Positions 3,451-53,057 of a DNA stretch of 64,000 nucleotides are shown one piece after another. The stretch lies in contig CAXMQV010000058.1 in NCBI GenBank assembly GCA_964195905.1, positions 21,865-85,864 on the forward strand, read 5' to 3'. Made by a program: the position numbers and the translations under genes. Within the stretch, counting starts at the first letter, position 1. Each line of letters opens with the position of its first letter. A model generated the notes under the pieces. That model was not told the origin of the DNA and searched no databases. It was given only the letters and a program-made list of their open reading frames with translations. The stretch is from an uncultured Gammaproteobacteria bacterium. Its GTDB lineage: Bacteria; Actinomycetota; Acidimicrobiia; Spongiisociales; SHLN01.

Positions 3451-4467
3451 TCAGACCAGCCCGAGGTAGGTGTTGGTGAGAGCGGTCGCTTCGGCGACCT
3501 CGGTCTGCATGGGGACCGAGGCACGAATGGCATCCATGGTCTCGGGGATCACGACCGACTCCTGGGGGATGTTGATCGCGAGCATGATGTCGTCGCCTGA
3601 CATGCCGATGGTCTCATCGAAGAGACCGATCTCATAGAGATCGCCGCGCGGTTTCCCGAGCATGCGACCGTACTGGAAGAGTGAGGTGTTCGAGTTGAAC
3701 CCGTCGGCGATCTTCACGACTCGCACCCGGGGGTCGTCTTCGAAGGCTCCGAGTACGGCATCCTTGGTCGCCCTCTCTTTCGGAGTGGCCACGATGGTGA
3801 TGATGTGGCCATGGGTTACCGGGGTATGGACGAGGAGGCCGGTGGCCTTGACCTGGGGCATGATCTCCATGAGGTCGACGGCCTGGTGGTTCGGGATCGG
3901 GTCCATCTCCAGGACGTCGACGAGCCCCCGATACGTGTCACCGGGATCGGCTACCCGGCGGATGATGGTGATGGCGACTCGCTCAACGCCAAACGCCCGG
4001 TCAAGACCGGCCACCGCCCGAATCAGACCCGAGGTATTGCATGAGGTGAGTTTGAGGAAGTCCTGGCCGACCCCTTTGGCGTAGTTGGCATTGTGGAAGA
4101 AGACGTCGGCGATCTTGCCGGATTCCCCGCCCTGGAAGACTGCCTTCAAGCCGTGCTCGACATACTTCTCTTTGTTCTTGGCGCCGATGCCGGCCCCGGT
4201 CGCGTCGAGCATGACGTCAACGCTGGTGAGGAGATCATCGAACTCGCCCGAGACCGGGATACCGGCGGCGGCGAGATCGGCGGCGGCCCCGGGGATGGCG
4301 GCGAAGAGGTTGTACGGCATCCCGCGCTCGGCGAGGGCCCGTATTCCGAGGGTCGGCTTGACGTCGGCGACGCCTACCAGCTCCATGTCGTCCTGGAGGT
4401 CGACGCCGTCGGCCAGACGCTGTCCGATGGTCCCGTATCCGGCGACACCGACTCGAACCTTTTCCAT
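3451..4467 (-). CDS. gap: glyceraldehyde-3-phosphate dehydrogenase, type II (archaeal-type)
   Basis: VAGYGTIGQR N-terminus, GIGAKN..KY.E.G.KA.FQGGE, catalytic TSCNTSGL, IRRVADP, DDPRV; collinear with archaeal class II GAPDH rather than bacterial GapA. Confidence 0.85.
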   Translation of the reverse strand: MEKVRVGVAGYGTIGQRLADGVDLQDDMELVGVADVKPTLGIRALAERGMPYNLFAAIPGAAADLAAAGIPVSGEFDDLLTSVDVMLDATGAGIGAKNKEKYVEHGLKAVFQGGESGKIADVFFHNANYAKGVGQDFLKLTSCNTSGLIRAVAGLDRAFGVERVAITIIRRVADPGDTYRGLVDVLEMDPIPNHQAVDLMEIMPQVKATGLLVHTPVTHGHIITIVATPKERATKDAVLGAFEDDPRVRVVKIADGFNSNTSLFQYGRMLGKPRGDLYEIGLFDETIGMSGDDIMLAINIPQESVVIPETMDAIRASVPMQTEVAEATALTNTYLGLV

Positions 4468-4541
4468 CTCATACCTCCTGGAATTGCGGGCCGCAGGAGG
4501 GCCCGCCGTGGTATCGCCAGGGTAGTGCCGCGCCGCCCCGG

Positions 4542-5552
<1,011 letters not shown>

Positions 5553-5620
5553 TTCTCGTTCCTTCTCTCGGCCAGGGTGGGAAGCCAAGAGAGTAGCGGA
5601 GCGATCGCCGCGACCGTCAG

Positions 5621-6262
5621 TCAGACCCGGTCGTGGGGAACCACGTACCAGAGAATCATGAGGAAGTGGAAGAGGCTTCCAAGCACGACCAGGATATGAA
5701 ACACCTCGTGGTGCGAGAAGATCCGGGGAAACAACTGGGGCCGCTCGTTTGCCAGCAATATCAGCCCGATGGTGTAGGAAAGCCCACCGGCGATCATGAG
5801 GAGGATGGCGCCGCCCGATAGCTGGTCGACGAGTTCCAGGAAGGGGACGATAGCGAACCAACCCATCGTGGTCTGAAGCGTGATCGAAATCCAGTCGGGC
5901 ACCTTGGGAAAGGCGATCTTCTGAATGATCCCGACCGCGGCGGCACCCCAGATGACGGTGAGGGTGATTGAGCGCCAGGCACCGTCGAGCACGTTGACGG
6001 CGATCGGGGTGTACGTTCCTGCCACCAGCACGAAGATCATCGAATGATCGACCCGCTGCATGCGCTTCTTCCACGTCTCGCGCCAGGGGACCGAGTGATA
6101 GAGGGCGCTGGCGGTATAGAGGCCCATCAGGCTGATACCGAAGATGATCATGCTCACGACCCGGGCGGCGTCGGGGGTCGATCGGATGATGAGAAGGGCC
6201 ATTCCGGCCGCCGACACCACTGCGGCGGACCCGTGGAGGAAGCCTCGCACGGGATTGGTCAT
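5621..6262 (-). CDS. hemolysin III / PAQR family channel protein
   Basis: 7-TM profile with conserved HxxxH...SALYH motifs; start taken at [11 protein letters not shown] (ATG 6262). Confidence 0.75.
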
Positions 6263-45381: not shown

Positions 45382-46227
45382 TCAGTTGACGGAGCGCCGG
45401 TAGAGGCGGATCGAGAGCGGTACGAAGACCGCCAGGATGAGCCCCGAGTAGAAGAGGGACAGAAACACCTGGCCGAGGACCGTGCTGCCCGGCAGCAAGG
45501 CTCCCTCCCCGAGGATCAAGCCACGCAGCGCATCAACGGTTACGGTGACCGGCTGGTTGTCGGCGAAGCTGCGCAGCCAGCTCGGCATCGTCTGGGTGGG
45601 AACAAACACCGAACTGGCGAACACGAGCGGGAAGACCGGAAGGAACGTGGCAGCCTGCACGGCCTCGGGATTCTTCACGAGCAGGCCGATGGTGGCCATG
45701 ATCCACGAGAACGCGAACGAGAAGACCATGGCAAGTGCCAGGCCGCCCAGCAACCCGGCGAAGCTCGTCTGGTATCGGAACCCGATCACGAACCCCGCGA
45801 CGAGCATGAGACCGATCACGAAGCCGTTGCGGATGAGGTCCGAGAAGGTGCGACCGGCCAGTACGGCAGATCGGGCCATCGGGAGGGAGCGAAACCGATC
45901 GATGACACCTTTGGCCAGATCCTCAGTGAGCCCAAAGGCAGTTTGGCCGGCGCCAAAAGCGGCGGTTTGCACCAGCAGGCCGGGGATAAGCCAATTGACG
46001 TATTCGCCGGCGGCCGCATCGGGAAGGCTTCCGCCGATGGCCCCGCCGAACACGTAGGTGAACAAGAGCAGGAACATGATCGGCTGAATCGTCGAAAACA
46101 CGATCAACTGAGGCAGCCGCACGTTACGCAGCAGATTGCGCTTGGTGATCACGATGATGTCGCGAATGGTTCGTGGAAGCGACGCCGCCACCCGTCCCGG
46201 CTTGGTCGGTGCGATGACTGCGGTCAT
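45382..46227 (-). CDS. ABC-2 type transporter permease
   Basis: 6-TM ABC-2 profile; ATGA overlap with upstream ATPase. Confidence 0.75.
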   Translation of the reverse strand: MTAVIAPTKPGRVAASLPRTIRDIIVITKRNLLRNVRLPQLIVFSTIQPIMFLLLFTYVFGGAIGGSLPDAAAGEYVNWLIPGLLVQTAAFGAGQTAFGLTEDLAKGVIDRFRSLPMARSAVLAGRTFSDLIRNGFVIGLMLVAGFVIGFRYQTSFAGLLGGLALAMVFSFAFSWIMATIGLLVKNPEAVQAATFLPVFPLVFASSVFVPTQTMPSWLRSFADNQPVTVTVDALRGLILGEGALLPGSTVLGQVFLSLFYSGLILAVFVPLSIRLYRRSVN

Positions 46228-47231
46228 GATTTCCTCCTGCGACGACCTCTGCGGCCGGTCGGTGGTGGTCCTTCGTCCAGTGTCTCGCTCTCGGCGGCGT
46301 GACCGGTGAGGGTCAGGAACACGTCATCGAGGCTCGGCTTGTGAAGGGCTATGTCGTTGGGAATGATCGAAGCCGAATCGAGGGTCCGCACCACCTCGGT
46401 GAGTGTCCTGGCTCCGTCGATGGCGGGAATCGTTATCTCACGGGTCATGGTGTGGACCAACGGCTCGGATCCGGAGATGGTCCGGAGCGCGTCGATGGTC
46501 TCGGTCTGTCGATCTTCGGGAACGCTCAACTCGATGACTGAACCGCCCAGCGTGTCCTTGAGATCGTCTGAGGTACCTTCGGAGATGAGCCGGCCCTCGT
46601 CGATGACCGCGATACGGTCGGCCAGTTGATCAGCCTCATCGAGATACTGGGTCGTGAGCAGCACGGTGGTGCCGCCCTTCACCAGGTCACCGATGAGGTC
46701 CCACACGTCGATGCGGCTGCGGGGGTCGATACCGGTGGTCGGCTCATCGAGGAAAAGCACTTCTGGTCGGCCGGTGAGCGAGGCGGCCAGGTCGAGGCGC
46801 CGCTGCATGCCACCCGAGTAGGTTTTCACCTGCCGGTCGGCGGCATCGGCCAGGCCAATGCGGTCGAGCACTTCAGCGGCGCGGTGCTTGGAGTCGGCGA
46901 TTGACAATCCGTACAGCCTCCCGACCATCTCGACGTTCTCACGGCCCGTCAGGTATTCGTCGACCGCGGCGAATTGCCCGGCCAGGCCGATCTTGGTGCG
47001 AGCCATCTTGGGATCCGCCAGCACATCGACGCCGGCTACCTCGGCCCGCCCCGAATCGGGACGGAGCAGGGTGGTGAGCACGCGAATCAGCGTGGTCTTG
47101 CCGGCGCCGTTCGGGCCGAGCAAGCCGTAGATGATGCCCGGTTCGAATTCGAGCGTGACGTTGTCGAGCGCCTTCACGGTGTCACCGAATGTCTTCGAGA
47201 TGCCTTCGACGCGCACAATTGGTGTCGTCAT
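46224..47231 (-). CDS. ABC transporter ATP-binding protein (DrrA-like)
   Basis: Walker A GPNGAGKTT, signature YSGGMQRR, Walker B LFLDEPT; start at internal ATG 47231. The 169-codon extension is rejected. Confidence 0.85.
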   Translation of the reverse strand: MTTPIVRVEGISKTFGDTVKALDNVTLEFEPGIIYGLLGPNGAGKTTLIRVLTTLLRPDSGRAEVAGVDVLADPKMARTKIGLAGQFAAVDEYLTGRENVEMVGRLYGLSIADSKHRAAEVLDRIGLADAADRQVKTYSGGMQRRLDLAASLTGRPEVLFLDEPTTGIDPRSRIDVWDLIGDLVKGGTTVLLTTQYLDEADQLADRIAVIDEGRLISEGTSDDLKDTLGGSVIELSVPEDRQTETIDALRTISGSEPLVHTMTREITIPAIDGARTLTEVVRTLDSASIIPNDIALHKPSLDDVFLTLTGHAAESETLDEGPPPTGRRGRRRRKS

Positions 47232-47317
47232 GGAATTGTGCCTTCTTGTTGCAGAGGGATCGGAGATTAGGCCGTCGTCGACCGGTATCCCGCCATCAGC
47301 CGGTTCGGAGCTTCGAC

Positions 47318-47785
47318 CTAACCGCCCTCGGTGAGACCGAGGGGGTCGCGCCAGTTGGGAAAGTCGGGAGCTTCCTCTTCCAGCCCCCGCAGATAGGTGG
47401 TGACGGCCTGGATTTGCTCGAGTGTCAACGAACCGCCGAAATCGAGCGAGTAGGCACTCATCTGGGAGCCGGGAACTCCGACTGAGATCAACGCCGAGAT
47501 CTGCTCGTCGTTGGCCGCCTCCAGGAACTGCTTCGAATTGAGGGCGGGAGCAGTCCCGCCCATTCCGTCGATGCCGTGACAGGCCGTGCAGTTGCCGGAG
47601 AACAGGTCGGCCCCCTGCTCGGCCAGGAAGCCCAGCTGAGCTTCCCGATCGGCGTCTCGATTCGACGGCTCGAAAAAGCGGTACACCGGAAAGATGAGCG
47701 CCATCGCCAGCATGATGCCGACTCCCCACGCCATCCACTTGTTGGTTGATTGCTCGAGGGCTTCGTCGATGGGGCGTTCAGGCAT
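47318..47785 (-). CDS. monoheme c-type cytochrome, N-terminal TM anchor (last gene of the Rieske/cyt b operon)
   Basis: Single CTACHG heme motif, downstream Met ligand region; GGAGAG RBS; 8-nt overlap with Rieske gene. Confidence 0.7.
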   Translation of the reverse strand: MPERPIDEALEQSTNKWMAWGVGIMLAMALIFPVYRFFEPSNRDADREAQLGFLAEQGADLFSGNCTACHGIDGMGGTAPALNSKQFLEAANDEQISALISVGVPGSQMSAYSLDFGGSLTLEQIQAVTTYLRGLEEEAPDFPNWRDPLGLTEGG

Positions 47786-48281
47786 GGTTCTCTCCACACG
47801 CCGGGCCACGGGGCGGCTCATTGATGGTCTCGGTCCCGGGCGATACTCCCGTGATTGTCTCGCCGGTGTCGATTTCAATGACTCCGTCGACGATTTCCAC
47901 CTTGTACATGTCCATGCCCCGCGGGGCAGGCCCGGTCTTATGGTCGCCTGCCCGGTTGAACACGGTCCCGTGACAGGGGCACTCGAACTGACCGGACGAG
48001 TCGCAGAATGGGACCCGGCACCCGAGATGAGTGCACTTCTCAGATAGCGCGACCACCTCGCCGTTGATCTTCGTGAGGTAGGCGCGGGCCTCGGGGATCT
48101 CCAGGACGGTATTGGCCGGCACCTGGTCTGGGGACACGGTCTTCACCTTGGCCGCAAAGCCCGCTCCCAACCGGGGTTTCAGCAGGTCCCAGGTAGTCCA
48201 GGCTCCGGCCGCCGCCAGCAGGGTGGCCCCCACTTTCCATCCCTGGGCCAGGAAGGCCCGTCTGTCGAGGGCGTCACTCAT
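47778..48281 (-). CDS. Rieske [2Fe-2S] protein, TAT signal
   Basis: RRAFLAQG twin-Arg; CTHLGC ... CPCHGT cluster boxes; ATGA overlap with cytochrome b stop. Confidence 0.85.
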   Translation of the reverse strand: MSDALDRRAFLAQGWKVGATLLAAAGAWTTWDLLKPRLGAGFAAKVKTVSPDQVPANTVLEIPEARAYLTKINGEVVALSEKCTHLGCRVPFCDSSGQFECPCHGTVFNRAGDHKTGPAPRGMDMYKVEIVDGVIEIDTGETITGVSPGTETINEPPRGPACGENHA

Positions 48282-49570
48282 AATTCACCATGCCATTCCT
48301 GCCACGGCCACACCCAGGACCAGCTCGGCCCTCGGAAGGCGAATCCAACCAACGTCAAAATGATCCAGATAACCAGGAAGATGGTGAACGTGATCCGGGC
48401 AATGCGGCGGAACTCGGGGGTGAGCCGCGGGTTGCGGTCCAGGTAGGGAAGCGCCATCAGTCCCATCACAATGGCCCCCGGCACCAGGACCCCGGCTACT
48501 AGGGGATGGAAGTGGGCCAGCAGCTCCTGGAGGGCGGCGAAGTACCACGGCGCCTTCTCAGGGTTGGGGGTGTTGGTCGGGTTGGCGATCTCTCGCAACG
48601 GGGCATCGAAGGTGAGCGCGATGAGCAGCACAACAAACAGCACCGCCAGCGCCGCTACCGCGTGCCGGACCAGCAGGTGCGGCCACACCATGACAGGGTC
48701 GTCGTCCGATAGCACCTTGCGATCTCCGGCCGCCGGCTTCCCGGGAACAACGCCTAGCACTCGCTTGCCCTCGACGACCACAGGCTCACCGTTGGCGGGT
48801 GCGGTCATGGCCAGTCCCGGTTGCAACTTGGCGACGGGCGCGTCCGGATCGCCGATGGCGTCAGTGGTGAGCATCGAATCTTTGCGCCAGCGCCACAGAT
48901 GCGCCGTCACCAGGGCAACCAGAGCCACGGGCAAGACGGCCACGTGCAGCACATAGAACCGGAGCAGGGTGGCCGAGCCGACGGTGGGACCACCCAGCAT
49001 GAGCTCCTGGACCTGGTCGCCGATGAGGGGCACATAGGCGGCCATGGCGGTACCGACCGTCACCGCCCAGTAAGCCAGCTGGTCCCACGGGAGTAGATAC
49101 CCGGTGAACGAGAGCAGCAGCGTGACCACCAGCAGCAGCACGCCGATGACCCAGTTGAATTCCTTCGGTGACTTGTAGGCGCCGCGGTAGAAGACCCTGG
49201 CCATATGAGCGGCGACGGCCAGCACCATGAGGTGCGCCGACCAGCGGTGGACGTTGCGGATGTACTGGCCGAACGCCACCTCGGTCTGAATCGACTGGAT
49301 GTCGCCGTAGGCGTTGGCCGGCGACGGCACGTAGAAGAACATCAGGTAGATGCCCGATACCAGCAGCGAGCCGAACAGAACCAACGAGGCAACGCCCAGA
49401 AATGCCGAGTACTTGAAAGTGAGTTCGACCCGGCGCACCTTGACGGGATAGAGGTGCATGAGAAAACTGGCCCAATGACCGGCGGCCCGGTCTCGCTCGG
49501 TTACCCGGTCCGGAATCCGGAAGATCGACCGGCCGACGGTCGTGTCTCTGACGCGTTCTTTTAGGTTCAC
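48278..49570 (-). CDS. cytochrome b (fused b6/subunit-IV-like, Qcr/Pet type)
   Basis: ~430 aa, 8+ TM, heme-ligand His pairs (RNVHRWSAH..., ...HVAVLP); GTG start overlapping the TGA of the upstream gene (GTGA). Confidence 0.85.
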   Translation of the reverse strand: MNLKERVRDTTVGRSIFRIPDRVTERDRAAGHWASFLMHLYPVKVRRVELTFKYSAFLGVASLVLFGSLLVSGIYLMFFYVPSPANAYGDIQSIQTEVAFGQYIRNVHRWSAHLMVLAVAAHMARVFYRGAYKSPKEFNWVIGVLLLVVTLLLSFTGYLLPWDQLAYWAVTVGTAMAAYVPLIGDQVQELMLGGPTVGSATLLRFYVLHVAVLPVALVALVTAHLWRWRKDSMLTTDAIGDPDAPVAKLQPGLAMTAPANGEPVVVEGKRVLGVVPGKPAAGDRKVLSDDDPVMVWPHLLVRHAVAALAVLFVVLLIALTFDAPLREIANPTNTPNPEKAPWYFAALQELLAHFHPLVAGVLVPGAIVMGLMALPYLDRNPRLTPEFRRIARITFTIFLVIWIILTLVGFAFRGPSWSWVWPWQEWHGEL

Positions 49571-51357
49571 ACCAGCTCTCCGATCTTGGGTACTCCGACG
49601 CCGGTCCACACAGACATGGAGAGGGCGTCGGGCGGGCAGCGTTCAATGCAGAGGCCGCAGCGGATGCAGGCTCGCTCGTCAAGCAGCAGCGTGGTGCTCC
49701 CGACCGGCCCGCCCACCTCTTCGGCCGGGACGAGCGAAATCAGGTCGAGCGGGCACACATCGGCGCACAGGGCGCACAGGACGCACTTGTTGACATCGAG
49801 GCTGATATTGGCGAAGCACCGCAGGCACCGGGCCGCCTCGCAGCGGGCCTGCTGTTCGGTGAATCCGATCTCGACCTCGGCCAGACCGACCCGGCGCTCG
49901 GTCGGCAGAGTCGGCACCTCAAGCCGATCCTCGCGGTCATAGGTGTCGGTCAGGCGATGGAACTGTTGAAGCTCGACCAGCTCACCCTTGATATCGCCAG
50001 GCGATTCGCCGGTGAACCGCTCATGGATTTCGGATGCAGCCTTGCGCCCGTCGGCAATCGCCTGGATGAGGGTGCGGGGCCCGAAGGCGGCGTCGCCTCC
50101 CGCCCACACCATGTCGAGCGAGGTCGCCAGCTCGTCGCCGACCATGATCGTCTTGCGAGGAGAGATGGCTGGCCCGTCGGGTCCGATAGCGTCCACGTCG
50201 ACCGCCTGGCCGATCGCCAGGATGATGGTGTCGGCTTCGTACACCTGGAGGTCGTCGGCGTCGAAGGTCGGAGCGAAGCGTCCTTCTTCATTGAATACCG
50301 AGGTCACGCCGATGGTTTCGAGACCGACCACTTTGCCGTTCTCGGCGAGAATCCGGGCCGGCCCTCGCCGATTGATGAACTTGATGTCCTCTTCGGAAGC
50401 CTCGATCAATTCGAAGGGAGAAGCAGGCATCTCCTCGGCGGATTCAAGCGAGATCACCGTGACCTGAGCTGCGCCCGCTCGAGTGGCGGTACGGGCGGCA
50501 TCGAGCGCCTCGGTCATGACGTTGCGCTCATCTGCTTCGATCTCAGCATCCGTCATGCCCACGGCCCCGTACTCGACCCGGCGCAGCGCAGTGCGGGCCG
50601 CGTCCATCGCCACGTCACCCCCACCGATGACGATGACCCGGTCCCCCACCTCCACCTCGAAGCCCTGGTTGGCGTTGATGAGGAACTCGATGGCTTTCAG
50701 CACCCCGTCGGACTCATGGCCTTCGATGTCGAGGCCGCGTCCCAGCGTCGCCCCGATCGCCATGAACAGCGCATCGTGACGTTCCTGCAGCTCGGAGAGG
50801 GTGACGTCGTCACCGAGCTTGGTGTTGAGGTGCACTTCGACGCCGAGATCGACGATCGCCTGCAATTCGGCTTCGAGAAGGGTCCGGTCGAGCCGGTATT
50901 CGGGGATCCCGAGCTTCATCATTCCGCCCAGCTGGGCGGTCGCTTCGTAAACGGTGACCTGGTATCCGTGGCGGCGCAGATCGTGAGCACAGGCCATGCC
51001 GGCCGGGCCTCCACCAATGATGCCGATGCTTTCGGATCGATCCGGCCCGGTGGGTGCAGCGACCTGACGCCAGGCCTCGCCTGCTCCAGCCTCTACCCCG
51101 TACTTCTCGGTCACGAACCGTTTGAGCGCCCGGATGGCGATGGGCTCGTCGATCTCACCGCGGCGGCAGGCATCCTCGCAGGGAGCGGCGCACACCCGGC
51201 CGCAGGCCGAGGCGAACGGGTTAGGGAGGCGAGCGGTCAGATAGGCGGTGAGGTCGTCACCGTCGGCGATGGCGGCCACGTAGGCACCGGCATTGGTATG
51301 AACCGGACAGGCGGCCAGGCAAGGGATGTTCTCGTCGTAGAACTGCAGGCCGGACAA
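49567..51357 (-). CDS. GltD-like NAD(P)H-dependent FAD/Fe-S oxidoreductase fused to a 2x[4Fe-4S] ferredoxin domain
   Basis: N-terminal Cys cluster CLAACPV..CGRVCAAPCEDAC, two dinucleotide folds IGIIGGGPAGMACA and VIVIGGGDVAMDAA, C-terminal CVLCALCADVCP + CIRCGLCIERCP; TTG start 1 nt after TAG of upstream cyt c with AGGTGAT SD. Confidence 0.75.
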   Translation of the reverse strand: MSGLQFYDENIPCLAACPVHTNAGAYVAAIADGDDLTAYLTARLPNPFASACGRVCAAPCEDACRRGEIDEPIAIRALKRFVTEKYGVEAGAGEAWRQVAAPTGPDRSESIGIIGGGPAGMACAHDLRRHGYQVTVYEATAQLGGMMKLGIPEYRLDRTLLEAELQAIVDLGVEVHLNTKLGDDVTLSELQERHDALFMAIGATLGRGLDIEGHESDGVLKAIEFLINANQGFEVEVGDRVIVIGGGDVAMDAARTALRRVEYGAVGMTDAEIEADERNVMTEALDAARTATRAGAAQVTVISLESAEEMPASPFELIEASEEDIKFINRRGPARILAENGKVVGLETIGVTSVFNEEGRFAPTFDADDLQVYEADTIILAIGQAVDVDAIGPDGPAISPRKTIMVGDELATSLDMVWAGGDAAFGPRTLIQAIADGRKAASEIHERFTGESPGDIKGELVELQQFHRLTDTYDREDRLEVPTLPTERRVGLAEVEIGFTEQQARCEAARCLRCFANISLDVNKCVLCALCADVCPLDLISLVPAEEVGGPVGSTTLLLDERACIRCGLCIERCPPDALSMSVWTGVGVPKIGELV

Positions 51358-51358
51358 G

Positions 51359-52168
51359 CTAGATCACCTTGTTCCGTTGCACACGGCGAAGGCCCCACAT
51401 ACCGAAGGCCAGCGCTACCACCCAGACTCCGGCCCCGATGAGGCTCCGGATGATCTCCCACAGGTCGCTGGAGATGAGATCCCCCCACACCGACGGCGGC
51501 GAGGCCAGCGCACCCGATTCCACGACCCTGGAGGGGATGAACACGGTCGCGATGATGAAGTACAGGACGATGACGCCGGCCTTGAGCCAGGTTTGAACCG
51601 GGGTGAAGGTGCCGCCGTCGGCTTTGGCAAGCACAATCGGGGTCACGACAACGCCCGTCCCGATAAGGGCGATGAGGAACCCGATGCCGTAGCTGAGAAC
51701 TGCCCCGGAGGGAAGGCTGGTGCCGGCGGTTCCTCCGCTTTCGGCGCTGGGCGGTGCAGGAGGAAGCGGCTCTCCGAGGCCTTCCTGAAGAAATGCAATC
51801 AGCGAGGTGACCTCGTCCTCGTCGAGCAGGTTGAAGGCCGGCATCCTGCTGTTGTAGGTCTCACCGAGAGCTTCGACCTCTCCACTCAGGCCGTTGCGGA
51901 CCACGTCACGTACATAGTCCGAGTTGTCGATGTTGGGGTTATCGAGCAGTGGCGGGAAGGAACCCGAGCGGCCGGTTCCGTCGGATTGGTGACAGGCCGA
52001 GCAATTGGCCTCGTAGACGAGCCGGCCCTCGGCAATGAGCCGGTCCGCCCCGTCCTCGGCAGGTGGGTCCTCCTGACCAAAAGCAACTGCCGAGGCTCCA
52101 ACCAGCATGAGAAGCACGACTACGAAGAGAGAAGCCGCCCGGCCGATGAGGCCCGCTCTTCGCGTCAT
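51359..52168 (-). CDS. membrane-anchored monoheme c-type cytochrome (first gene of operon)
   Basis: Signal/TM, CSACHQ heme motif, C-terminal 3 TM helices; start ATG 52168 (AAGGA SD). The ~100-codon extension is rejected. Confidence 0.65.
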   Translation of the reverse strand: MTRRAGLIGRAASLFVVVLLMLVGASAVAFGQEDPPAEDGADRLIAEGRLVYEANCSACHQSDGTGRSGSFPPLLDNPNIDNSDYVRDVVRNGLSGEVEALGETYNSRMPAFNLLDEDEVTSLIAFLQEGLGEPLPPAPPSAESGGTAGTSLPSGAVLSYGIGFLIALIGTGVVVTPIVLAKADGGTFTPVQTWLKAGVIVLYFIIATVFIPSRVVESGALASPPSVWGDLISSDLWEIIRSLIGAGVWVVALAFGMWGLRRVQRNKVI

Positions 52169-52323
52169 CCCACCCATCCTTTCGTGTTCCTTCCCTGCCA
52201 CGCTAGTCCCCGAATCCGGGGGGTCAGTCGACCGTCTGCCAAGCGTATGGATGATTGGGCGCCAGATACTCCCGACCGGCCGCTCGTGCTCTTCGATGAC
52301 ACCGTGTCGATCGCCCGGGGTGA

Positions 52324-52677
52324 AGCGTTGATCCTCAACTACCCGATGTTTCGCTCGTCGACCCGGCCGAGGCGGGCCGCTCGATCTTCTCCGAAACCGC
52401 CCTCGGTACGAAGGCGGGATGCCGGATCTGCCACAGCCTCGACGCGGGTCGCGACCTCGTCGGCCCATCCCTGGCCGGGGTTGGTACCCGGGCCGGCAGC
52501 ACGGTGGACGGACTGGACGCCGAGGAATACCTCCGCCAGTCGATAGTCGATCCCGACGCCTACGTGGTGCCCGGCTTTCCGGCCGGCCAGATGCTGGCGG
52601 GCCTGGGCGATGTCCTGTCGCCTGAGGACCTCGATAGCCTCATTGCGTTCCTCCTGACGCTCGAGGAGACCCCGTGA
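52324..52677 (+). pseudogene. c-type cytochrome paralog lacking start codon and signal peptide (probable pseudogene or frameshifted gene)
   Basis: Frame encodes ...GRSIFSETALGTKAGCRICHSLD...YLRQSIVDPDAYVVPGF...IAFLLTLEETP*, collinear with the downstream lipoprotein cytochrome, but no ATG/GTG/TTG in frame after the preceding stop. Confidence 0.4.
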
Positions 52678-53057
52678 AACGCATTGCCCTTGTCTGCTTG
52701 CTGGTTCTGGCCGGCTGCGGGGGAAGCTCCGGCTCGGACCCCGACCCATCATCGACCGTCCGTCACGGCCGGGACATCTTTGAGGAGCGCATTCTCGGGT
52801 CCAACCCGGGCTGCATCACGTGTCACTCGTTCGATCCCGAGACCACGCTGGTCGGCCCATCGATTGCGGGCGTGGCCGTCCGGGCCGAGACCCGGGTGAG
52901 CGGACAGACCGCCCGCCAGTATCTGCGCGAGTCGATTGTCTCGCCTTCGGCCTACCTGGTTGACGGCTTCGACGGAAAGATGCCGGGCGACTGGGCCGAC
53001 GTGCTCACCGAGGCCGAGATCGAGGCCGTTGTTGGCTACTTGTTGACTCTCCGGTAG
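52674..53057 (+). CDS. c-type cytochrome lipoprotein (monoheme)
   Basis: GTG start, LVLAGCGGSSG lipobox, CITCH heme motif, conserved ...YLRESIVSPSAYLVDGF...VVGYLLTLR. Confidence 0.7.
   Translation: MKRIALVCLLVLAGCGGSSGSDPDPSSTVRHGRDIFEERILGSNPGCITCHSFDPETTLVGPSIAGVAVRAETRVSGQTARQYLRESIVSPSAYLVDGFDGKMPGDWADVLTEAEIEAVVGYLLTLR

Follow-up and report, generated by a model that had tools for sequence, protein, structure and literature searches.

Background

The transfer of a quinol electron to nicotinamide adenine dinucleotide (phosphate) (NAD(P)+) by a Rieske/cytochrome b complex has, to our knowledge, been an open proposal since the genomes of anaerobic ammonium-oxidising (anammox) bacteria, and has yet to receive a biochemical test, in part because anammox bacteria are difficult to cultivate and have complexes rich in haems. 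Kartal, in 2013, is said to have reported that Rieske/cytochrome b complexes of anammox bacteria include an NAD(P) oxidoreductase subunit. Here we describe an operon of comparable content in a stretch of 64,000 nucleotides (the whole of which is called the window below) from an uncultured bacterium assigned by GTDB to the Acidimicrobiia (Actinomycetota; assembly GCA_964195905.1, contig CAXMQV010000058.1). The operon spans positions 47318-52168, with all five genes on the minus strand, and encodes a membrane respiratory complex with an NAD(P)-binding iron-sulfur (Fe-S) flavoprotein; its products are a first cytochrome c (cytcA), the flavoprotein, a cytochrome b, a Rieske protein and a second cytochrome c (cytcB).

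The closest described systems are the complexes of Kuenenia stuttgartiensis (Kuste4569-4574 and Kustd1480-1485; PMC12954380), which share with the window operon a Rieske protein, a b6-type cytochrome b, a subunit IV and a cytoplasmic flavin adenine dinucleotide (FAD)/NAD(P) Fe-S flavoprotein with about four clusters. According to de Almeida 2016, as far as it is cited in PMC5600118, anammox complexes contain cytochromes b and large oxidoreductase subunits and are highly expressed. The measured Rieske potentials of the anammox homologs are high and, together with the energetics, fit bifurcation (PMC12954380). From the side of the cytochrome b, Kao and Hunte (2014) defined an 'APWY clade' with members in delta-Proteobacteria, Chloroflexi, Nitrospirales, Planctomycetes and Actinobacteria, for which reverse operation was suggested, and placed Ilumatobacter coccineum, of the Acidimicrobiia, among organisms with a split cytochrome b of the APWY or PEWY-cyt c clade (PMC4122944). 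Dibrova et al. noted many other cases in which a cytochrome b of their 'subfamily G', within which haem cn is variable, occurs together with a large NAD(P)-binding Fe-S protein (PMC5600118). The window operon agrees with these accounts in its APWY motif, in the existence of split and fused forms, in its patchy spread over several phyla and in the presence of neighbouring NAD(P)/Fe-S oxidoreductase genes. Both papers catalogue the cytochrome b only, and neither PMC4122944 nor PMC5600118 describes the five-gene actinobacterial operon, its two-helix subunit, its monohaem cytochromes or its oxidase or nitrate reductase (Nar) neighbourhood. Literature searches on Acidimicrobiia Rieske proteins with cytochrome c oxidase found nothing, and those on Rieske proteins with cytochrome b and GltD found nothing relevant by titles and abstracts.

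Sequence comparison identifies the operon as encoding an anammox-type, NAD(P)-linked Rieske/cytochrome b complex of the APWY clade, a recognised and uncharacterised kind, in a new actinobacterial form. A preliminary description of the locus had rated its novelty too highly, as the kind is known from anammox bacteria, from subfamily G (PMC5600118) and from the APWY clade (PMC4122944). What appears new in the actinobacterial form is the use of monohaem cytochromes c, a conserved two-helix subunit fused to the first of them, and, in many relatives, a neighbouring haem-copper oxidase or, on some contigs, a NarCGH nitrate reductase. The complex is conserved in about 50 species-level Acidimicrobiia genomes from soils, sediments and waters, which gives the system a wider ecological reach, and its two monohaem cytochromes and often adjacent oxidase make it a stripped-down version for structural and enzymatic work.

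Results and discussion

Linkage of the flavoprotein to Rieske and cytochrome b genes

An exhaustive profile-free search retrieved many flavoprotein homologs of about 600 aa at 36-50% identity, whose sources by name are Nitrospinota, Desulfomonilaceae, Myxococcota, Planctomycetota and Candidatus Brocadiales. Rieske and cytochrome b genes adjoin those of full-length flavoprotein homologs (36-54% identity) in Nitrospinota, in a relative of the Brocadiales and on several unassigned metagenome contigs. In a metagenome scan with the homolog alignment, this linkage to qcr-like genes was found across phyla for homologs of at least 36% identity and for one further locus (L092, 34%); weaker homologs, which are other GltD-like enzymes, were never linked, and the closest homologs were never found without a cytochrome b. 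Most of the linked operons outside the Acidimicrobiia continue with a cytochrome c that carries six to eight haem motifs.

Two of these operons are particularly informative for comparison. In the Brocadiales relative (L159) the order is flavoprotein, Rieske, b6 (with the motif FCLGG), subunit IV, multihaem cytochrome c and a cytochrome resembling hydroxylamine oxidoreductase (HAO), and the flavoprotein aligns over its full length at 36-38% identity. The resemblance to anammox complexes that the preliminary description had pointed out is accordingly real homology, the flavoprotein family being the same as judged from Brocadiales-order proteins and from the published descriptions of the Kuenenia proteins. 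The closest non-actinobacterial flavoprotein (50% identity) is encoded in the Nitrospinota assembly GCA_003696125.1 (locus L161), in the order EB_dh, flavoprotein, fused cytochrome b, Rieske and trihaem cytochrome c. This operon shares with the window the core order flavoprotein-fused cytochrome b-Rieske-cytochrome c, the APWY motif, the lack of a haem-cn cysteine and an N-terminal extension (FFLHIHPVKV); the differences are an EB_dh protein (NxrC-like, with haem b) as the first product in place of the two-helix/cytochrome c subunit, and three haem c motifs in the last gene.

A scan of one genome per species found flavoprotein orthologs at 68-91% identity in 49 metagenome-assembled genomes (MAGs) of Acidimicrobiia/Actinomycetota, and assembly GCA_964196415.1 encodes a protein with 100% identity to that of the window. 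Wherever an Acidimicrobiia contig extends 2.3 kb or more beyond the flavoprotein ortholog on its downstream side, the next genes are cytochrome b, Rieske and cytcB, in that order and without exception (38/38), with abutting or overlapping coordinates, so the linkage is not due to chance; loss of the flavoprotein reading frame from relatives that keep cytochrome b and Rieske, which the preliminary description had named as an outcome that would count against it, was seen at none of these loci. All five genes are strictly co-inherited, the flavoprotein and cytochrome b being the best conserved members and the cytochromes c the most variable. No cultured host was found: the homologs of protein P0121 all come from MAGs or metagenomes, and AMFO01 is a metagenome from a Loihi iron mat.

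The flavoprotein

The flavoprotein contains no membrane segment; its folds for FAD (GGGPAG) and NAD(P) (GGGDVA) are followed by a 2x[4Fe-4S] ferredoxin domain at the C-terminus. The features of NfnB/GltD small subunits, namely a Fer4_20 N-domain and a Pyr_redox_2 domain with FAD and NAD(P) sites, are both present, with the N-domain motif split. Residues 10-85 match positions 29-107 of the Fer4_20 profile, leaving an N-terminal domain without its first CxxC, and residues ~494-518 match profile positions 5-29 (E = 0.0014). Because these two matches are complementary, the first CxxC of the N-domain appears to be displaced to the C-terminal side, at residues 511-514. In 20 full-length homologs of 36-65% identity, cysteines 13, 17, 56, 60, 64, 511, 514, 525/528/531/535 and 564/567/570/574 are invariant; C511 and C514 lie in an RCLxC motif (RCLRC in the window), and the two CxxCxxCxxxCP motifs are kept in all 20. 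From this pattern we predict a four-cysteine cluster (C13, C64, C511 and C514) and, beside the FAD, a three-cysteine cluster (C17, C56 and C60), which with the ferredoxin domain would bring the protein to about four clusters. In the published models of the anammox proteins the FAD-proximal cluster likewise has three cysteines only (PMC12954380).

An AlphaFold2 model from the single sequence reached a predicted local distance difference test score (pLDDT) of 35, and one built with the 20-sequence alignment reached a pLDDT of 84 and a predicted template modelling score of 0.85; the latter was used. Its top Foldseek matches are NfnABC (9bov_A), StnC of StnABC (8oh5_C) and NfnB (5jca_L), followed by GltD and DPD. 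By sequence search the closest structures are those of NfnABC (9bov/9bp5), and the C-terminal domain matches the polyferredoxin FwdF (5t5i). The best structural matches of Kuste4570 are the same (NfnABC 9bp5/9bov and FwdF 5t5i; PMC12954380). Predicted fold and sequence thus place the flavoprotein with the NfnB-like modules of NfnABC and StnABC. Flavoproteins of the NfnB/GltD/DPD type, including those of the bifurcating NfnABC and StnABC, have in common with it the fold and the cofactor sites (two N-domain clusters, FAD and an NAD(P) site), whereas the window protein adds the C-terminal 2x[4Fe-4S] domain and is encoded inside a membrane-complex operon. No NfnA, GltB or DPD-type catalytic partner lies alongside it, its operon neighbours being cytochrome b, Rieske and cytochromes c only. 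The beta2 strand of the NAD site ends in SLES, with the same Glu in 14 of the 20 homologs and YRRS in four; as a rule of thumb, a Glu at this position hints at NAD(H) rather than NADPH.

The cytochrome b and Rieske core

The cytochrome b consists of a b6-like four-helix part fused to a part resembling subunit IV. The preliminary description had called it long, which holds for its length and can be refined to this fusion, the two parts being split in most relatives: the fused form occurs in the window and at loci L002, L005 and L079, and the split form at L009, L016, L023, L027, L036, L041 and L048. Since b6 and subunit IV are separate genes (~245 and ~180 aa) at seven of the nine other Acidimicrobiia loci compared, the fusion looks recent and is traceable within one clade. 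Its four haem-ligating histidines align with those of b6; the cysteine that would hold haem cn is absent in this alignment, the CxGG position reading AFLGV. The quinol-oxidation (Qo) motif of the window, NPEKAPWYF, is of the APWY form, as are those of the 16 linked homologs aligned with it, and because this clade-wide motif and the four haem ligands are kept, quinol oxidation is probably retained. An N-terminal extension of ~50 residues that is absent from cyanobacterial b6 carries an invariant histidine (FLMH39LYPVKV). The extension with its histidine is present in all flavoprotein-linked cytochromes b aligned, across phyla; the b6 of the Brocadiales relative, which stands outside that alignment, is without it. 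In AlphaFold3 models of the anammox complexes, a haem is ligated by the N-terminal His43/His62 (PMC12954380). The Rieske protein has a twin-arginine signal (RRAFL) and the cluster boxes CTHLGC and CPCHGTVF, and its closest NCBIfam model is that of the b6f PetC type, which it matches below the cutoff.

Operon layout and the two-helix module

The five reading frames, their order and their domains are as first described, on direct reading of the sequence and from the Pfam matches (Table 1). Each gene is coupled to the next: the cytcA stop codon ends 1 nt before the TTG start of the flavoprotein (TAG-c-TTG), the flavoprotein stop and the cytochrome b start overlap in GTGA, cytochrome b and the Rieske start overlap in ATGA, and the Rieske stop and cytcB overlap by 8 nt (ATGCCTGA). 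An in-frame TGA 9 nt upstream of the TTG fixes the N-terminus of the flavoprotein and leaves no room for a longer form. The GC content at third codon positions is ~0.8 in all five, from which we take all of them to be real genes. A consensus scan of the operon region found no sigma-70-like promoter, and its two terminator-like matches, fewer than in shuffled sequence, both lie within coding sequence, one of them on the opposite strand. Signals in the proteins place the Rieske protein (by its twin-arginine translocation (TAT) signal) and both cytochromes c (by signal or anchor) outside, and the flavoprotein, which has no signal peptide, inside. Single CxxCH motifs are found in each of cytcA and cytcB.

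Table 1. Features of the operon and of its divergent upstream neighbours, in window coordinates (TM, transmembrane)
Feature	Position	Strand	Description
cytcB	47318..47785	-	155 aa; N-terminal helix anchor, one CTACH; Pfam Cytochrom_C 5e-9
Rieske [2Fe-2S] protein	47778..48281	-	167 aa; TAT-exported; Pfam Rieske 1.7e-11
Cytochrome b	48278..49570	-	430 aa, GTG start; Pfam Cytochrome_B 1e-43, Cytochrom_B_C 1.5e-11
NfnB/GltD-like Fe-S flavoprotein	49567..51357	-	596 aa, TTG start; cytoplasmic; Pfam Fer4_20 + Pyr_redox_2 + Fer4_7
cytcA	51359..52168	-	269 aa; monohaem cytochrome c domain (CSACH) on the periplasmic side, preceded by a signal peptide and followed by three TM helices; Pfam Cytochrom_C E = 7e-11
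cytcA C-terminal two-helix hairpin	51359..51601 (approximate)	-	~residues 190-269; small membrane module, from alignment
Relic of cytochrome c domain	52345..52677	+	CRICH, no start codon; last ~106 codons (52345-52662) of a 756-aa fusion gene, by tblastn
Lipoprotein monohaem cytochrome c	52674..53057	+	127 aa, intact, divergent from operon; LAGC lipobox, CITCH; Pfam Cytochrom_C 5e-6

The first gene had been described as a membrane-anchored cytochrome c, and for the window this is correct. In the Acidimicrobiia alignment, what the gene preceding the flavoprotein always encodes is a two-helix hairpin of ~75 residues, with the consensus WLK..I..L.F...W.PS...DLIGSG.W...GL.GLR..Q. The hairpin is a stand-alone open reading frame (ORF) of 75-107 aa at L018, L034, L036, L037, L079, L162 and L163, and in the window, L025 and L041 it is joined to a cytochrome c domain; in the window the fusion comprises a signal peptide, the cytochrome c domain and one more helix. 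By this alignment the conserved unit of cytcA is the membrane hairpin and not the haem domain.

Comparison with known systems

The anammox complexes differ from the window operon in several respects. They employ hexa-/octahaem and HAO-like cytochromes, whereas the window has two monohaem cytochromes c and no multihaem (hexa- or octahaem) cytochrome c subunit in the operon; the Kuenenia complexes have the haem-cn CxGG cysteine that the window lacks; and the window shows a fusion of cytochrome b with subunit IV, an extra two-helix subunit and a different gene order. The host also differs, being an Actinobacterium with oxidase or nitrate-reductase neighbours among its relatives and no anammoxosome metabolism.

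The operon shares with actinobacterial QcrCAB and with cyanobacterial and plastid cytochrome b6f a Rieske/cytochrome b core with a Qo site, and its cytochrome b is b6-like in sequence, but it differs from both in including the flavoprotein. Assignment to QcrCAB, against which the preliminary description had already argued, was rejected, with scores far below the NCBIfam cutoffs (QcrB_actin 113 vs 500 bits, QcrA_actin 25 vs 275, QcrC_actin 27-29 vs 200) and no dihaem QcrC. These Actinobacteria use a complex III-like enzyme other than QcrCAB, which matters for reading respiratory chains from metagenomes. Cytochrome b6f (PetABCD) was also rejected: there is no cytochrome f and no CxGG cysteine, and the PetC, b6 and subunit IV models all score below cutoff. 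The best-scoring NCBIfam models for the cytochrome b are those of the Geobacter Ext selenite/tellurite-reduction cluster, ExtP (259.8 bits, cutoff 290) and ExtQ (54 bits, cutoff 150), and this candidate was set aside on those scores.

Electron flow through the complex

We consider it moderately probable that the operon encodes an APWY-clade, b6f-like complex with an NfnB/GltD-type flavoprotein on its inner side, in which the electrons of menaquinol are split between a cytochrome c branch and NAD(P)+. Menaquinol would be oxidised at the Qo site, and one electron would pass through the Rieske protein to the two monohaem cytochromes c and, perhaps by way of the lipoprotein cytochrome c, to a terminal cytochrome c-dependent reductase. 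The second electron would cross the membrane via haems bL and bH, possibly by way of one more haem that the invariant His39 would ligate at the dimer interface, and would then travel along the Fe-S chain to FAD and NAD(P)+, instead of or besides reducing quinone at the Qi site. This would amount to quinol-based bifurcation as proposed for anammox bacteria, providing NAD(P)H from quinol without use of the proton-motive force by a chain that should in principle be reversible. Three observations lead us to favour this direction: flavoproteins of this clade occur strictly together with a Rieske protein and a special Qo site, the flavoprotein resembles bifurcating Nfn modules, and the Rieske potentials measured for the anammox homologs agree with it. 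High-potential sinks are encoded nearby, an oxidase in 21 of 35 relatives and NarC-NarGH on other contigs.

Several points weigh against this bifurcating scheme. Most Acidimicrobiia live as aerobic heterotrophs and should be well provided with NADH, so that a need for quinol-driven reduction of NAD(P)+ is not obvious; the hint of NAD(H) specificity in the SLES motif weakens a rationale based on NADPH supply. The direction of electron flow is not deducible from sequence, the attachment of the flavoprotein to the membrane part is deduced from synteny only, and the equivalence of His39 with His43 of Kuste4571 is putative. The window complex is without the haem-cn cysteine that the anammox models use, and the neighbouring oxidase has been lost from this genome. 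In addition, no complex of the APWY clade has been biochemically characterised (PMC4122944).

The scheme in its most specific form is that, in aerobic or nitrate-respiring Acidimicrobiia, each menaquinol sends one electron to cytochrome c and the terminal oxidase and the other uphill via the b haems, a His39 interface haem and four Fe-S clusters to NAD(P)H, without use of the proton-motive force; this we advance tentatively. If it is true, respiration by a mechanism so far put forward for anammox bacteria alone would be widespread, and the monohaem actinobacterial form would be the most tractable for proof.

Electrons may also flow in the opposite sense through the flavoprotein, which would then act as an input module that oxidises NAD(P)H and passes electrons via its Fe-S clusters to haem bH and the Qi site, where menaquinone would be reduced before being re-oxidised at Qo. 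The complex would in that case be a compact NAD(P)H:cytochrome c oxidoreductase, a non-pumping NADH dehydrogenase built on a bc complex and feeding the adjacent oxidase or nitrate reductase. Such a role suits organisms that are aerobic or nitrate-respiring and heterotroph-like with terminal reductases adjacent, agrees with the Glu of the NAD site, and accords with the general behaviour of GltD/NfnB modules, which normally take electrons from NAD(P)H; Dibrova et al., moreover, see cytochromes b of this type as membrane anchors of dehydrogenases (PMC5600118). We regard it as the less probable direction but as a serious rival, especially in heterotrophs: it would leave unexplained the strict tie to a Rieske protein and an APWY Qo site where a plain dihaem cytochrome b anchor would serve, the high Rieske potentials of the anammox homologs fit bifurcation better, and the energy loss would, according to the anammox authors, be enormous where proton-pumping NADH dehydrogenases exist (PMC12954380).

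The two other readings are less likely. Reverse or confurcating operation, in which electrons of high potential from reduced cytochrome c and of low potential from NAD(P)H would converge at Qo to reduce menaquinone, could draw on the Pro at position 2 of the Qo motif, which removes the proton-accepting Glu, but we think it improbable, as the window shows no high-potential donor system such as Nxr or an iron or sulfur oxidase, the genes adjacent to the operon in relatives (oxidase, NarG) would take up electrons and not supply them, and the proposal goes back to one gene-neighbourhood case in Geobacter. The weakest reading is that the flavoprotein is a soluble NAD(P)H:ferredoxin-type or regulatory enzyme that is merely co-transcribed with an ordinary menaquinol:cytochrome c reductase, and although subunit interaction is deduced here from synteny and the flavoprotein has no membrane segment, it is made very improbable by the start/stop coupling on both sides of the gene, by the order kept in all 38 loci, by a linkage that holds from phylum to phylum despite changes of gene order and of cytochrome c partners, by the constant company of a cytochrome b with the closest homologs, and by the report, so far as PMC5600118 cites it from de Almeida 2016, of anammox complexes with both cytochromes b and oxidoreductase subunits.

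Neighbouring genes and the likely electron acceptor

The preliminary description had stated that nothing in the window names the electron donor or acceptor, and this holds for the present genome, whose neighbouring genes (ABC transporters, a methyltransferase, LtrA, acyltransferases and HpaB) give no clue to either; the UbiE-like methyltransferase is not conserved beside the operon in relatives. The relatives themselves supply a likely acceptor. A COX2-COX1 haem-copper oxidase operon lies divergently upstream in 21 of the 35 relatives with enough upstream sequence, together with a lipoprotein cytochrome c and often a fusion gene of 756-792 aa. The COX1 (555 aa) is divergent (CtaD 131 bits vs cutoff 670) and the CuA subunit II is short (172-197 aa), the pair lying at 3680-5865 (-) in L002. 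On three other, Acidimicrobiia-like contigs the operon stands beside a Thermus-like NarC (dihaem c), NarG (1413 bits) and MFS transporters (L162:15638-17806 and L163/L164:1-4849), with NarH in L163/L164; two of these three contigs carry the identical protein. This arrangement suggests that a cytochrome c-dependent Nar is fed by the complex on those contigs, and across the relatives cytochrome c-dependent terminal reductases (haem-copper oxidase or Nar) are the likely acceptors.

The window retains traces of the oxidase neighbourhood. The relic upstream of cytcA is 75% identical to residues 647-752 of the fusion protein of L002 (1394-3664; tblastn), and only a 57-aa ORF can be called in it. Compared with L002, which is 86% identical, ~4.5 kb is missing at window positions 52046-52345: positions 1808-6313 of L002, comprising the rest of the fusion gene, COX1 and COX2, have no counterpart. 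This comparison indicates that the neighbouring oxidase has been deleted in this genome, leaving behind the relic of a cytochrome c gene. The intact lipoprotein cytochrome c, whose start overlaps the stop of the relic (GTGA), is a paralog of it and has homologs in the same neighbourhood in ~25 relatives; it is a candidate soluble or tethered electron acceptor.

The fusion gene of the relatives directly follows the oxidase (L002:1394-3664 (-), L025:1205-3583 (-) and ~15 other loci) and encodes a protein that begins with a dihaem cytochrome b of b6-like type, continues with a 2x[4Fe-4S] ferredoxin, a domain resembling FlpD/MvhD and a further membrane segment, and ends in a cytochrome c. From its domains the protein looks like a transmembrane wire from a cytoplasmic Fe-S/MvhD module to a periplasmic cytochrome c. 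We know of no described equivalent of this cytochrome b/ferredoxin/FlpD/cytochrome c fusion.

Gene calls running through the overlapping stop/start junction, or an artefact of clustering, may explain why the 90%-identity protein cluster of P0121 mixes 607-aa flavoproteins with 244-aa cytochrome b6 sequences. At the other end of the operon, a 504-aa ORF (46224-47738, minus strand) overlaps cytcB; as a gene of that full length it was rejected, only its ABC-ATPase part from an ATG near 47231 being conserved and its 5' end being an artefact of ORF calling. The DrrA-like ABC ATPase that starts at this ATG is followed by a permease (45382-46227); apart from the closest relatives (L002, L004 and L005), other loci do not keep this pair downstream of the operon.

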